A stretch of DNA of 64,000 nucleotides from Botryllus schlosseri (Eukaryota): the NCBI GenBank assembly GCA_051294905.1, contig CM119372.1:8682001-8746000 (forward strand). Reading direction: 5' to 3'. The number at the start of each line of letters is the position of its first letter. Position 1 is the first letter of the stretch. Below, in pieces: positions 4,735 to 59,037 of the stretch. Made by a program: the position numbers and the translations under genes. The notes beneath the pieces are model-generated. The model saw nothing but the letters and a program-made list of their open reading frames with translations, searched no databases and was not told the origin of the DNA.

Positions 4735-7700
4735 TCACAGAGCACTCTCGGCAGCACTTCCGTTTTCGTAATACGGTGGTGGTGGACTTCCGTTGCTCAA
4801 GGTGTCTCCGTTGAGGCTAATGGCAGTCTTCAATTCGTTCTCGTAAAACTAAGGTTAAGTCATGTTACAATCGACAGTACGAAATCTATCTCAATATACT
4901 ACCTCTTTGTCAAGGGGCTCGACTGCCGTGGCCGTGTCGAAAGCTTCTTGTTGCCGAGACTGTGATTTGACCAATATATTGTTGATATGCTTCAACACCT
5001 GAGTGAAAGCTGGTCGCGATGATGCTCTCCATCTCCAGCACATGCTCATTAACTCGTACCTGAGATGTAAGCGACCGTTAATGTGCTTGTGCAATTTGTG
5101 CAATGTGCATGCAATGTACAATTTACATCGGTGTCTACAAGCCCGATTCTGTATGTAAATTTAATATATGACGATAATTGATCATTGATCACATGATCAG
5201 TATACAATGGATATAAGCTAAATTGCCAAAATCCCACTACAATCTTGCTCATATCAACTTAAATAATAGTGTTACAATAGTGCAGATTGGTCGTCATGTG
5301 TGGTGGGAAGGATAAACTGTTACATTTCATCGCCGCAAGACTTCGGTTGCTTCATTCTATATCCGGATCTCAGGGAGTCCAGAAGATCGGCAGTCTTTAC
5401 TTCCGGGTAAGGCGGACATCCCAATGTAAAGATTTCATACAAAAGATTTCCATACGACCATCTAAAATAGAATGAGATGATATTATTGTAGGGATGTTTT
5501 TACTCGAATATATATTACACAGCTGTACGGCAAAGTGTACGTACACATAGGAATCATGCAATATATATATATGCCTGCCGCGTTTCAACTTACACATCGC
5601 TCTTTCCCGTGACTGGATATTTCCCGCCCATCATTCTTTCCGGGCTTGTCCATTTCATCGGTACCGTGACTTCCCTCACGCCGGATTTGATATGTCCGTA
5701 TCTGAATAGCAAGTCGTGAACAAACGATACGCACTAAGGGCATTCTCATGCGGGTGGTACGTATCGTAACACGGATTTCGCTCAAATTCAATATACCCGC
5801 CCATACGTTTAAATATACAGTGGCGTTACAGTGTATGCTGCTATGAAGTATGGGCAATTGCGCATACTATGACATTCCGTTGTGAGATAGTAGATTGTAA
5901 AGTACGGTCATGAAAACTTCGGTCGACCCACGGATTTCGAAACCTGTGCGCTGTGCAGGGGTTTAGAAAATAGCTAACTGCGCATCGGTGCGACCATGAG
6001 GATACTCCGCATTAAAGCCAAGGACTATTGTTGGTATACCTGTACACGTCAGATGAAAGGCCGAAGTCCGACAGTTTACATATCCCTTCTTCGCCAACTA
6101 GTATGTTTCTTGCCGCGATATCGCCGTGAATAAGCCTTGTTTGTTGAAGATAAACCATTCCCTTGGCCACGTCTTTTGCCATTGTGGTCAGCGATGTTTC
6201 GGTCACTCTATAAATTGGGTCGTTTTCCCGCTTTGACGGCTTTGGAAGAATAAGTGTGCATATGTCATCAAGAACAATAGCAGATTTCCGAAGCGTATAC
6301 GACGGCATATAGATGTTTCATTTGGGCATTGTTTCATCATTCAAAAATACTCGATCATCGCGAACCCGTTATCAGCTCATTCGGAAATTATATAACGTGT
6401 AGGGTTGCAGTTTAAACAAAAATAAATTAAAGCAATGTTTAAAACAAGGCCCTTGTTTAAAACATGTTTTTTATTGTTTATTTTTTCTAGCCATGACGTC
6501 TCGAATATATATTGTGACGTCACAGTGGATTGACATTGACGATCACTGTCATAAACAGATCAAAATATCTTTAACCAGGACTACATCGTTATGCAGCATT
6601 TTTACGGTCGGCGGTCATCATCATCAGAACACCCATTCCGTACCAATGATCTATATCTACGTGCAAAAACTGACGATTACCGACGATTGCGAGGGTTCCA
6701 GCCACCCGACATCGTATATGTCGACTATTTTGGGTGTAAATCGTCCGTGGGCTCATACTACATCAGTGGTTCTTAACCTTTTTTCCTGCAGCCCCCCTTT
6801 CGAAAATTGCCTGGTTCTGCCCCTCCCATATTTCCAGGACGGTAGTAAAAACAAGGGGTAAGAGTTCAAAATCCGGTCGGTCTTTTCGGGTTGGGGCTTC
6901 ACTATTGGAAATAGCTTGAATAGCGCCCGAGGACCACTCGACTAATTAACGCTATGATAATTGTATGTGCTATATTCCAGATCAAATCGAGGTTGTCATA
7001 ACAACCATCGGGTATACGGGCTGATAGCGTCTGGTCGATTAACTTTAACATCAATGTATTCCAAACAAAGCAACTCATATTATATAACGTTCATGTTAGG
7101 TTGCGGGTCACAACACTAAACAGTATCATCCTTTATGATACGATAAAGAAATATTCTGAAGATGTAAAATTTTTAGTTCTCAAATACAAGTATATTTAGT
7201 TAATCATTTTGACCAAAAAGCTTCAGGGCATCTTTAATGTACGAAGGGCTCTCACTCTCGATCTTAAAGGTGGTAAAGTGCCCCTTTCTTCGATTTCGAC
7301 ACGTTGTTCGCTGCGGGATGAAATACCAAGTTCGAAACATTTTGTGGATAATAACCCGAGGTAGTGCGATGGTAGTATTTTAACGGGGAATTGGCGATCT
7401 AAAAGCACGCGCAATTCGTTTTACATGAATTATAATAAACCACTGCATATATGGAAACGTGTTGCAAACACGACCGGCATGTGTTTGATGGGTTAGCTGC
7501 ATCTAACTGTTATCTATGACACAATGGCTTGTAAGCAAGAGGTTCAACTACCCCTGCTGAGCACGATCGTGCCCGAACAATATATAAAAAGATCGCTTTA
7601 TTAATTCTGTCGTTTAAATTTGAAACAGTGTCGCATTTCACGAACGCCCAGGCGAGACCGCCGAAAATCACATTTTCACTGGGTCCCCTTTTTCGGGCTA

Positions 7701-56700: not shown

Positions 56701-59037
56701 ATTTACTCATGGTCGTGACTACACAGCCCGAGCGATATTGGGATTTTGGCCGATACGATAAAACCGATTTCTAACACCTTCCCCGATAAACCCTATTTAT
56801 TCAGCCGATCTTCAAAAGAGGTGGAATGTACCTTAAAAGTGCAGTTTCAAAACTTCAGAGCATTTATTTAAACGGTTTTACAGCCATTGTCATACTTGAA
56901 GATGAAATAAACTAGAAAGGCTGCATATGGACAGTGGACACCTTGAAAGTGTAAGCTATTTTGAAATATAGCAATATTCCCAGTCTAGCGGTCAAGGATT
57001 ATAGTTTTCAGAATTCCCGCCACCTTTTGTGACGTCACAAAAATTACCGATATTTTTTCGCCTCCAATGACCGATTCCGATGATTCTTACAAAGTGTGAT
57101 ATCGACTCAATATTATATCGGCGAACCGATAATCGGTCGGACTCTATAGTCGTGACGTAGCGTAAGGTAAGTCCGTGAAGTTGTACGGCAATACGGGTGC
57201 CACTGTGTCATATTGTAGGAATGGTGGAATCCCCAACAACTTTCTGGTTCGTATGAACACGAAATTTTATAAATCGTTAACACGAACATATGATGGCATG
57301 TGACATCACAATGCGAAATCAAACACAACTCGTGATTTTTCTCCATCCCGTTTACATATACACTAGTACATACACGATCAAATATTTTGCTTCTTACTCT
57401 TTCAGTTCAATTTGTTGAGAATTTCATCAGATCAAACATCATATAGGTTTTCGATACAATGAATAGATATGAAGGAATCAAAATACCATGGGAAAATCAA
57501 TGAAACTACCACAGTGCCATACAAACAGTGGTGATCAAAGTTATCACCGTTGGTAATCCCCAAGTAATTGTGGAAGTAATGCCGTAAATTTTCACTCCAT
57601 TACAAGTAGAAGTACCTATTTTGAAGAGAAGTCGAAACTACTTCAAGTGTAAGTAAAATCAAGGTATGAAAAGTACTTAAGCTACGACGCAAAGGTAGAT
57701 ATAATCAAGGGGTTGCAAATCGTGGGTTGTTTTGATCTCGCAACGTGCATCCTCTCGACTATAACAGAAAATGACTATAAAATCACACATTAAATATGCG
57801 CAGTTCGAAAATACATTCATTTACCGTTATCCCGGAGATATTTCTCCAGGTTGTTGACAATGACAATTTTTGACAATTTCTCTCATAACAGCGATTCAGA
57901 TATCACAAAATATGTCTACTTTACAAAATGCAAAGTGTAAAAAGCAATTAGTTTTGCCTACAAAGCAGCTAACTAGAAATGGCAATAGTCTAACAACATA
58001 GCTACTTGAGTCAGTGGTAAACAAATCTACTTGAATACTTCGAAAAAGTAGAAATACTTCATAATTACCTCTGCCTATAATCATAAGTAAGCAATGATTA
58101 CAGTGGAACGTTTACGTTGCCCGGACGAGTAGGAATAACACTGAGATTGAGATTATACACTATTTAAACGATCACATTTCTTTGTTTTTCAATGCCCTTA
58201 TCTGCCGAGAACATCATATCGGTTTTCGAGCTTTTATCATTCTCGAATAAAACACGTAGGGGGTGAGAAATGTGTTAGATCAGTACTTTGCATTGCAACA
58301 AGACATATTTCAACGACTACTTCACCTCGGAGACAAAGGCGCACAAGTAGGCTACAGCACACGCGCGTAAACGAAGAACAGCTACCATATGATCAGGACT
58401 GAATACAAGAAAACGCATTGCTCTATCAAGTATGCCGGACCCGAATTGTGGAACAGCATCTCGCCGGCTATCCGACAGTCGTCGATCATGTCCGCATTCA
58501 AATCGAAATACAAGCAATTTCTTCTAAATGAATACTAGTCAGTATTCACCACGACCTAACATCGACCTCGTCCTCCGCCACATGTCACCTCATTTTCTCG
58601 CTTGCGTCTTATATTCTCTGCATTACTTTTCATTCAGTGTGCATATCTCTTATTTACTTCGCCTAGGCTAAGGTGGGTGTCTGATCTTAAAGGCTACTCC
58701 AAGTTGTTTCGACACCTTCCCATCTTCTCATTGTATCGCAGTCTTGTGATGTTTTGAAACGATGAAAATATTAATAAACCTGATTGATTGATTGATATAG
58801 AAATATCATTTGGATACGCTCTCAAATTTCCTCCTGCCCACAATAAGGACTTCACCTCAATAACCCATACATATTCTGTTTTATTTCCCGATATGGGCAA
58901 TTTAGGTCTACTTGTAGTATTTACGCAGTCAGTATTCAGTACTCACCCTTTCTACATCGTCTCTTTACTGTCCTCGCCAAAGACAGAAGTATAAGTGCAG
59001 ACAAAATATAGATCGACTTTCGAGTGATGTACAGCAT
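41711..59037 (-). CDS. Paralog C: single-pass membrane protein with the RTK-type ectodomain and a very short tail, no kinase (about 490 aa)
   Basis: Exons 59037-58947 (MLYITRKSIYILSALILLSLA signal), 56500-56390, 56312-56225, 53140-52936, 51186-51116, 48137-48022, 47953-47793, 47729-47564 (GLLPNTTYKFTI, FN3-like), then less certain 43781-43706, 42897-42813, 42233-about 42100, and TM exon about 41883-41711 (IIVAAILGGVVILLLFLLLLICCCKEDRTEKAL-stop); minus-strand AATAAA at 41599-41594. Confidence 0.78.
43188..43625 (+). mobile_element. hAT-type MITE family L
   Basis: TAGGGTTACCATACG...CATGGTAAGCCTA, TSD TCATATGC/TCCTATGC. Confidence 0.85.
44108..46581. mobile_element. Non-autonomous TIR element with (GTAATC)n subterminal repeats
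   Basis: CAGACATGGGGT...ACCCCATGTCTG TIRs; TGCGATC present in both flanks. Confidence 0.78.
44986..45519. mobile_element. hAT-type MITE with GAGTC subrepeats nested in the previous element
   Basis: CAGGGTTGTAA...TTACAACCCTG, perfect TSD GGTATTGG. Confidence 0.87.
48570..50594. mobile_element. Foldback-like element with satellite-built long TIRs
   Basis: GGGTGCCTTTATTTTGTACATGCAAGCTAAT terminus mirrored at right; arms of about 450-480 bp made of AAGCTAAT-based units; TSD TGTACGAC; lies inside an older inverted-repeat element (about 48250-50766). Confidence 0.88.
52379..52681. mobile_element. Charlie-like hAT MITE
   Basis: CAGTGGCTCTCAAC...GTTGAGACCCACTG, TSD GTCTAAAG/GTCTATAG. Confidence 0.8.
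53230..53402 (-). mobile_element. Partial SINE S1
   Basis: Shares tail and B-box region with 34389-34672. Confidence 0.7.
53532..54501. mobile_element. hAT-type non-autonomous element (970 bp)
   Basis: TAGGGATGGTGTGAAC...GTTCACACCATCCCTA, perfect TSD CTATACAC. Confidence 0.88.
55166..55418 (+). mobile_element. Second tRNA-derived SINE family (possible Meta-type central domain)
   Basis: TAGTGTAATGGT A-box, GGTTCGATCCC B-box, then GGTCGGACCAAAGACT...CTGCTAGGCGCTCAGCA. Confidence 0.6.
55419..55601. repeat. (CT)n microsatellite, about 180 bp
   Basis: Direct reading. Confidence 0.98.
58320..58796 (+). mobile_element. 3' fragment of a CR1/L2-clade LINE
   Basis: Translation SIKYAGPELWNSISPAIRQSSIMSAFKSKYKQFLLNEY-stop, then 3' UTR and (GATT)n tail. 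Confidence 0.78.

Follow-up and report, generated by a model that had tools for sequence, protein, structure and literature searches.

Three adjacent paralogues of a tunicate receptor tyrosine kinase family in Botryllus schlosseri, one complete and two without a kinase

Ectodomains are the basis on which receptor tyrosine kinases are classified, and several routes have led to truncated or decoy receptors, as in sFlt-1, TrkB.T1, BAMBI and the plant RLK/RLP pairs. Another route is found in the insect insulin receptor (InR) family where, according to PMC7253209, duplicates of the receptor lost the kinase and gave rise to SDR, a secreted decoy, and DR2, a membrane-bound form without the tyrosine kinase (TK). 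That paper, which cites Okamoto et al. 2013, reports that ligand binding and antagonism have been demonstrated for SDR. In C. elegans the truncated receptor DAF-2B is reported to arise through alternative splicing (PMC7041946). Here we present a locus of the tunicate Botryllus schlosseri at which a complete receptor tyrosine kinase (gene A) and two kinase-less paralogues (genes B and C) lie head-to-tail on one strand. The stretch analysed, referred to below as the window, comprises the 64 kb at C2:8682001-8746000 of an assembly of 495.5 Mb in 219 contigs, which is also the genome searched for further loci.

This type of arrangement is already known from the insect insulin receptors; the ectodomain, the phylum and the clustering differ. 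As described there for InR, SDR and DR2, the kinase has been lost in duplicates that keep the receptor ectodomain, one of them secreted and one membrane-bound (both predicted in the present case). Unlike InR, whose ectodomain consists of L domains and a furin-like region, the Botryllus trio carries an N-terminal module (N-module) followed by a fibronectin type III (FN3)-like part, belongs to the tunicates and has its three forms side by side on the same strand. Ligand binding and antagonism, demonstrated for SDR, are predictions for the trio. The trio also resembles DAF-2B, sFlt-1, TrkB.T1, BAMBI and the RLK/RLP pairs in placing a kinase-less ectodomain beside a signalling receptor. Several of these other decoys are splice forms of one gene, whereas A, B and C appear to be separate genes with their own start and stop.

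The window is eukaryotic in character, with about 40% G+C and short introns. In minus-strand order the trio consists of C (59037-41711), B (32256-24599) and A (18460-4735), a 54-kb stretch limited by the A of the gene C ATG at 59037 and the final base of the gene A stop codon at 4735. A first-pass annotation had proposed three same-strand genes with six shared intron phases and near-matching exon sizes. By scanning the minus strand for AG...GT exons compatible with open reading frames (ORFs) and having those sizes and phases, we recovered all of them with GT-AG sites and obtained a single collinear exon set for each gene. Exons 1-6 measure 91/120/82/193/71/119 nt in A, 94/108/109/214/71/113 nt in B and 91/111/88/205/71/116 nt in C, and the intron phases are 1,1,2,0,2,1 in A, B and C alike. 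Across these 18 exons, 14 of the 15 internal acceptors are YAG after a T-rich tract and one is AAG, and the donors are mostly GTRAG. Each gene opens with a hydrophobic, signal-peptide-like N-terminus. The sparse residues that the earlier reading had listed as common to the three are present: DGYAVR, DGVLVR and DGFLFR (in A, B and C, respectively), LWV, FWI and IWI, CEC, CPC and CWC, an exon-4 end of VPA in A and IPK in both B and C, and a CC closing exon 6 in all three.

A, B and C are paralogues with one common ectodomain module, similar beyond chance. In Smith-Waterman alignments of the module encoded by exons 2-6, z values reach 11.6 (A-B), 5.4 (A-C) and 21.9 (B-C), and in none of the three pairs does any of 2000 residue shuffles attain the observed score. 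Single-exon tblastn against the whole window gives, for exon 4, a mutual B-C match at E 2e-7 and an A-B match at E 0.09-0.12; for exons 4 and 6 the top non-self match in the window is the corresponding exon of another trio member. Further evidence comes from a profile hidden Markov model built from the ectodomains of four database tunicate kinases (P0002, P0003, P0005 and P0017) and containing no window sequence. The first-pass annotation had staked the ectodomain similarity on significance in profile alignments, and it is significant: A scores 262.4 bits, C 53.0 bits and B 43.8-58.5 bits depending on the variant of exons 2 and 3, whereas the best of 900 shuffles scores 8.9. The alignment extends over the N-module and the FN3-like part of C and over the N-module core of B. 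Five family kinases share 16 invariant columns, of which 15 are conserved in B and 12 in C. N-module identity of B and C to A is 19%, the same distance as that of the most distant family kinase, and both are 19-23% identical to paralogues. Open frames over eight to nine exons at this level of identity suggest long purifying selection. Whole-genome searches with single contiguous exons connect B, C and a paralogue of C on C6. What is shown directly is that the three genes are paralogues, which domains they contain and that B and C lack kinase exons.

Outside the family the N-module finds little. Pfam gave no match for it among 26 exon and ORF translations of the trio, exon 4 of gene A found no homologue among longer proteins, and a profile of the three exon-4 peptides, which at 72 positions has little power, returned no match at E<=0.001 against 1.84 billion representatives. 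The leads from the ESM Atlas were fn3 clusters only, with scores of 0.84-0.87, below the 0.9 lead level.

Gene A is a receptor tyrosine kinase, with two EGF-like domains and a predicted transmembrane (TM) segment ahead of the kinase, as the first-pass annotation had described it; its kinase domain, catalytic residues and family features place it there. The model comprises 18 exons with a coding sequence of 2712 nt in frame for 903 residues, the boundaries of the kinase exons having been refined by homology to P0002. Its parts, with the evidence that defines them, are as follows.

18460-18370, 18310-18191, 17919-17838, 17725-17533, 17468-17398 and 17152-17034, minus strand: exons 1-6 of gene A, predicted signal peptide and N-module (exon sizes, phases and GT-AG sites)
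16557-16382 and 12548-12344, minus strand: exons 7-8, FN3-like domain (splice chain; tblastn to P0002 residues 238-364; fn3 itself below its threshold)
11958-11818 and 10399-10267, minus strand: exons 9-10, two EGF-like domains (tblastn to P0002 residues 365-452)
10210-9994, minus strand: exon 11, predicted TM segment (TTILLATVLPILFLIIIAAVCVWFII) and juxtamembrane part (tblastn to P0002 residues 452-528, 55% identity)
9596-9335, 8674-8490, 6239-6040, 5701-5594, 5461-5324, 5059-4903 and 4848-4735, minus strand: exons 12-18, kinase and C-terminal tail, with the stop codon at 4737-4735

P0002 matches the window collinearly with A over its residues 37-907 in tblastn, reaching 16 of the 18 exons: exons 2-5 are collinear with it, exons 1 and 6 give no P0002 match at E<=0.1, and the N-module is 48.5% identical. 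The Pfam kinase family PF07714 is spread over six A exon ORFs, with 45.6, 68.5 and 42.8 bits on three of them (cut-off 23.1 bits) and three further matches below the cut-off at adjoining profile positions. The best matches of the kinase in the PDB are receptor tyrosine kinases. The two EGF exons score 17.4 and 26.1 bits against EGF_3 (PF12947), below its cut-off of 28.5 bits. A type-I topology is predicted from reading the translation, in which the N-terminus is hydrophobic and RKRRQ comes directly after a run of 26 hydrophobic residues. Present in the kinase are GRGNYG, VAVK, HGDIAARN, DFG and PMKWTSPE, together with an activation-loop YRY; Gly takes the place of the Arg of HRD in the catalytic loop, which we take to be a non-RD state. 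As all residues needed for catalysis are present, the kinase is expected to be active.

Three observations on gene A stand beside these. The kinase N-lobe (9335-9596) contains an insert of 35-45 residues between the glycine loop and VAVK whose position, not its sequence, is kept in A, P0002 and P0003. The last exon (4735-4848) encodes FYENELK and ends with PPPPYYENGSAAESAL and a stop; YENx also occurs in the tail of P0002 (PPHYENVH), and because YxN is presumably the Grb2 SH2 binding consensus, the YENx of A is a candidate Grb2 site. Intron 7, 3.8 kb long and lying between the FN3-like exons, contains an antisense LINE-type reverse-transcriptase ORF (13317-15476, plus strand) of 719 residues that matches RVT_1 at E 3.8e-33.

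Kinase and EGF motifs occur on the minus strand only, and kinase homology is limited to 9596-4738 according to a motif scan of the window and tblastn with P0002. In neither search did kinase exons turn up in the intervals that separate C from B and B from A. Because the EGF and kinase parts of P0002 match only A exons in the window and no other kinase motif occurs there, B and C are family derivatives and not receptor kinases. Both are TK-less paralogues: their ectodomain is homologous to that of a receptor kinase, the kinase is absent, and each has its own stop codon.

Gene C consists of a predicted signal peptide, the N-module, an FN3-like domain, a predicted TM segment and a 12-residue tail, CCCKEDRTEKAL, followed by a stop, and its end is exactly as the first-pass annotation had it.

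59037-58947, 56500-56390, 56312-56225, 53140-52936 and 52289-52219, minus strand: exons 1-5 of gene C
48137-48022, 47953-47772, 47729-47564 and 41883-41711, minus strand: exons 6-9 of gene C

The FN3-like domain occupies the two exons after exon 6 (LNVSISWIPP ... GLLPNTTYKFTI), and the next exon holds the TM segment, the tail and the stop. Exon 8 scores 14.9 bits (E 0.033) against fn3 (PF00041), whose cut-off is 25 bits; splitting of the domain over two exons lowers exon-wise fn3 scores. AATAAA occurs 112 and 198 nt past the stop, a frequent hexamer and as such weak evidence. A long (GA/TC)n microsatellite, translated as SLSLSL/RERERE, lies in intron 3 at about 55,370-55,600.

Gene B consists of a predicted signal peptide, the N-module and a truncated FN3-like remnant, after which it stops.

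32256-32163, 32102-31995 (alternative 32063-31956), 31827-31689 (alternative 31827-31719), 30383-30170 and 30088-30018, minus strand: exons 1-5 of gene B
25295-25183, 25019-24863, 24703-24650 and 24604-24599 (TGA at 24601-24599), minus strand: exons 6-9 of gene B
24586-24476, minus strand: membrane-like ORF behind gene B, ending in LLAIRLVIIIIIIIGLLAIFISSMHHKNAIQ and a stop, sharing its frame with the good acceptor at 24604

The size of B exon 3 is the one structural detail of the earlier model that we would revise: its phase stands, but the exon is probably 139 nt and not 109 nt. A GTAAGG donor at 31689 gives the 139-nt version the same phase, raises the family-profile score from 43.8 to 57.1 bits (up to 58.5 among variants) and regains a conserved cysteine eight residues before the Trp. 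At the 3' end, exon 7 has a strong GTAAGT donor and is followed by a short exon 8; every splice-consistent model ends 18-31 codons past exon 7, and none of them contains a usable TM segment, in line with the first-pass description of B as having no visible one. AATAAA lies 8 nt past the B stop, where the frequency of this hexamer again makes it weak evidence. The ORF at 24586-24476 may be what is left of a TM exon, or else an (ATC)7 microsatellite has produced it by chance. What looked like an FN3 motif in the ORF 24858-24625 was rejected as a translated polypyrimidine tract.

The kinase family to which A belongs could be found only in tunicates within the searches made here. When the catalytic-loop exon of A was searched against proteins, the best matches of family type were tunicate proteins, behind one unrelated protein (P0001, a multi-kinase protein without IHGDIAARN). 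Foremost among them is the Logan-derived P0002 (80% identity in that search), which is one 907-residue product on a 4.2-kb Logan contig, so that the complete receptor exists as a single product in a relative. Other relatives are Styela clava LOC120341741 (P0003) and LOC120332675 (P0017), a Clavelina lepadiformis 'receptor protein-tyrosine kinase' (P0005) and the Ciona savignyi fragments P0004, P0008 and P0009. Gene A is orthologous to these functionally unannotated proteins of Styela, Clavelina and Ciona. Beyond the tunicate proteins, the catalytic-loop matches fall to generic Eph, JAK and other kinases. A few narrow literature searches, which included PMC4898815 and PMC8662651, found no description of the family.

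Its architecture is a signal peptide, a cysteine-bearing N-module of about 200 residues, an FN3-like domain, two EGF-like domains, a TM segment and an HGD (non-RD) kinase. IHGDIAARN is present in all four family proteins examined (P0002, P0003, P0005 and P0017), and the loop, the 35-45-residue insert between the glycine loop and VAVK and a tail with YENx are family-wide. A resembles these four proteins in length (903 versus 857-907 residues), order of parts, HGD loop and insert before VAVK. All four carry a precomputed PF12947 domain, and fn3 matched one of the four orthologue ectodomains (E 9.2e-5). No tunicate record retrieved bears any annotation of the N-module, and the tunicate database records, unlike B and C, are complete kinases, without functional annotation.

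Coral Eph proteins are the best kinase-exon matches outside the tunicate family, with 56-62% identity in the catalytic-loop exon. The general plan, as predicted for the tunicate proteins, is also similar: a type-I receptor in which an N-terminal binding module of about 200 residues is combined with FN3, parts that are rich in cysteine or EGF-like, and a tyrosine kinase. Unlike in Eph, FN3 precedes EGF in the tunicate family and there is no SAM; neither PF01404 nor SAM is among the precomputed Pfam domains of family members. The idea that the N-module is a divergent Eph ligand-binding domain was rejected, as hhalign against an alignment of coral Eph ligand-binding domains gave a probability of 0.4%.

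The trio is not alone in the genome. Whole-genome searches with single exons and the P0017 ectodomain, examination of 159 kb around the matches and tblastn with P0017 revealed, beyond the trio, at least three more complete kinases of the family and four more loci without a kinase. Of six further gene-like clusters examined, three have kinase exons and three do not.

C15:~12.134-12.154 Mb, C2:~5.117-5.123 Mb and C6:~7.843-7.849 Mb: further complete kinases (P0017 tblastn)
C15:~12.230-12.235 Mb, C8:~0.741-0.747 Mb and C8:~0.768-0.771 Mb: N-module, FN3 and EGF, with no kinase match 14-21 kb downstream

One of the C8 kinase-less units has a clear TM ORF. The fourth locus, at about 9.18 Mb on C6, is a close paralogue of C with no kinase within 20 kb. 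All nine C exons match it at 65-87% identity, and by the Nei-Gojobori method dS is about 0.16. Its TM exon has the stop at the same position as in C but lies upstream of its own gene body (exons 2-8), with none detected on the downstream side of that body in C6:9179001-9209000; the paralogue is either rearranged, partly duplicated or misassembled. It also has two copies of the signal-peptide exon. At C6:2.134 Mb there is a family fragment that contains a stop in frame. These further kinase-less loci mean that kinase loss is recurrent in the family and not peculiar to the window.

We propose that the cluster consists of three anciently diverged paralogues of the tunicate receptor kinase family, in which B and C act as non-signalling paralogues that keep the N-module, secreted in the case of B and membrane-anchored in the case of C, and modulate family kinases; we would put the chances that this is correct at about even. 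In this scheme A would signal via ligand-induced dimerisation and trans-phosphorylation, for which it keeps the ATP-binding Lys, the catalytic Asp, DFG and the activation-loop YRY. B and C, as separate genes that retained the N-module and lost the kinase, would present that module in two ways: B as a secreted N-module with a broken FN3, C as an N-module, FN3, TM segment and 12-residue tail held at the membrane. Both may bind the target of the N-module as ligand sinks, or may damp or shape the signalling of family kinases as inactive partners in their dimers; their relation to A would then be that of SDR and DR2 to insect InR. That B and C are independent genes is suggested by their own ATG, signal-peptide-like start, stop and AATAAA; their expression, binding and antagonism are predictions, and a decoy or co-receptor role is plausible. 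The only link of B and C to A as partners is adjacency.

Several results weigh against this reading. A search of sequencing runs listed none on record as RNA, and 14 contig sets presumed to be RNA, which contain 0.11-0.21 of the words sampled from window 4700-12650, count as no evidence of expression. The N-modules of B and C are only 19% identical to that of A, so a ligand common with A is not implied. The C-terminal part of B looks decayed, with an early stop and about 45 residues of the FN3-like domain gone, and the TM-like ORF at 24586-24476 is separated from the acceptor at 24604 by two in-frame TAA codons. Omega (dN/dS) for the comparison of C with its C6 paralogue is high, at 0.73 in the N-module (189 codons) and 0.58 in the FN3-like part (114 codons), values that fit relaxed constraint on one copy as well as fast adaptive change. 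When 3304 word-sharing candidates among proteins of 173-618 residues were scored with the profile of four orthologue ectodomains, no kinase-less relative reached E<=0.001. The fold of the N-module is likewise not captured: an AlphaFold2 model of P0002 residues 25-365, made with a 4-sequence alignment, has a mean pLDDT of 42 and a pTM of 0.37, and at that pLDDT it is too poor for a fold search.

B and C could be functional but independent of A, as adhesion or recognition proteins or as co-receptors with their own ligands, beside A through duplication history only. Besides their low identity to A, the two N-modules are no closer to A than the distant paralogue P0017 is. The N-module tree, which has long branches and none of its four inner branches starred, does not resolve B and C with A, and A with P0002 is its only supported pair. 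Kinase-less members also stand elsewhere without an adjoining family kinase, namely the C6 paralogue (over 20 kb) and the two C8 loci (over 14-21 kb). What speaks for a role tied to the receptors is that the invariant residues kept by B and C point to a common fold and probably a common class of binding partner, and that in the best-studied precedent, according to PMC7253209, the TK-less paralogue binds the ligands of the receptor itself. We regard independence as possible, though on the doubtful side. Alternatively, B, and with less likelihood C, may have no function, being a partial and truncated duplicate that is decaying or not expressed. In favour of this are the missing FN3-like residues of B and the lack of all EGF, TM and kinase parts, the stop soon after exon 7 in every splice-consistent model, the TAA codons before the TM-like ORF, the copies of a repeat family directly 3' of B (24173-24499) and C (41002-41211), the omega values and the rearrangement of the C6 paralogue, with its TM exon upstream of the body. 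Against this, B at 19-23% identity retains open frames and canonical splice sites in eight exons, and its 15 invariant residues, cysteines included, would be unexpected had it long been decaying neutrally; in C the TM exon is intact, and the paralogue keeps the position of its stop. Decay of this kind is unlikely in our view.

More remote is a single complex locus, in which the ectodomain cassettes of C and B, with their own promoters and signal peptides, are spliced onto the EGF, TM and kinase exons of A in the manner of protocadherins or UGT1. Frames would allow it, since the A stop is reached in frame when A exon 9 (EGF1) is placed after exons 1-8 of C, and likewise when A exon 11 (TM) follows exons 1-7 or 1-8 of B, and the trio lies on one strand in the order that cassette splicing needs. 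However, frame compatibility follows from paralogy, given the conserved intron phases. C ends in a TM exon and stop of its own and B in its own stop, with AATAAA after it, and the joins would need introns of 14-36 kb against 59-5680 nt for the modelled introns of the trio. The sole donor within the C TM exon leaves phase 1, which when worked by hand is a misfit to kinase exon 12. The orthologue P0002 bears A's own N-module on its kinase, and stand-alone kinase-less loci exist elsewhere in the genome. Taken together, these make one shared locus very improbable. As for the similarity being an artefact of exon choice without homology, the exon models were indeed hand-built from splice sites and motifs, and B exons 2 and 3 are ambiguous, with three variants that keep the frame. 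But the profile made independently from database proteins puts B and C 35-50 bits above all 900 shuffles, the unbiased single-exon tblastn of the window returns the matching exon as top non-self match for exons 4 and 6, and whole-genome single-exon searches connect B, C and the C6 paralogue. On sequence statistics the artefact is rejected, and we attach next to no probability to it.

The first-pass annotation had also taken the divergence of the three genes as what one expects of immune, allorecognition or gamete recognition genes. This is unsupported. A has clear tunicate orthologues and an N-module 48.5% identical to that of P0002, and with such orthologues A is not a hypervariable gene. A wider version would see in the family a tunicate-specific, expanding recognition system of HGD receptors and kinase-less paralogues, working as paired sensing and modulating units in non-self or gamete recognition; it would be a chordate counterpart of the plant RLK/RLP pairs on an undescribed ectodomain fold. 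The basis cited for it is the presence in the genome of at least four kinase-bearing and six kinase-less loci, several in local clusters, along with the 19-23% identity among paralogues and one recent pair with omega 0.6-0.7. We consider it rather improbable.

What the locus adds is a tunicate family that is expanded in the genome and has lost its kinase repeatedly, with full, predicted secreted and predicted membrane-tethered forms side by side. If the modulator reading of B and C is true, lineage-specific receptors with built-in kinase-less modulators would offer a natural example of how decoys and co-receptors originate from receptors; if B and C are unexpressed, the cluster is an ordinary partial duplication. 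The conserved HGD loop, for its part, poses the question of non-RD regulation in a tyrosine kinase.

Several features of the surrounding DNA may be recorded. The start of the window is occupied by an MCM2 ORF (3-2180, plus strand) of 725 uninterrupted residues that runs off the window start and has all five MCM2 Pfam domains. It is without introns, whereas the adjoining genes consist of many short exons, and its 3' end converges on that of gene A at a distance of about 2.5 kb. Between B and A, just upstream of the A start codon, lies a tandem repeat of about 1 kb in about three copies (window ~18,740-21,390), recognised from near-identical ORF translations every 996 bases (ORF starts 18739, 19735 and 20731). 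The repeat family found directly 3' of the last exons of B and of C, one copy each, is about 200-330 nt long and has at least four copies in the window, at 24173-24499 (plus strand), 41002-41211 (minus), 58560-58754 (plus) and 61851-62055 (plus). Their translations are alike, with RPRPDLSISPS or with LFIQC followed by LFTSPRPRWV(T/S)D.

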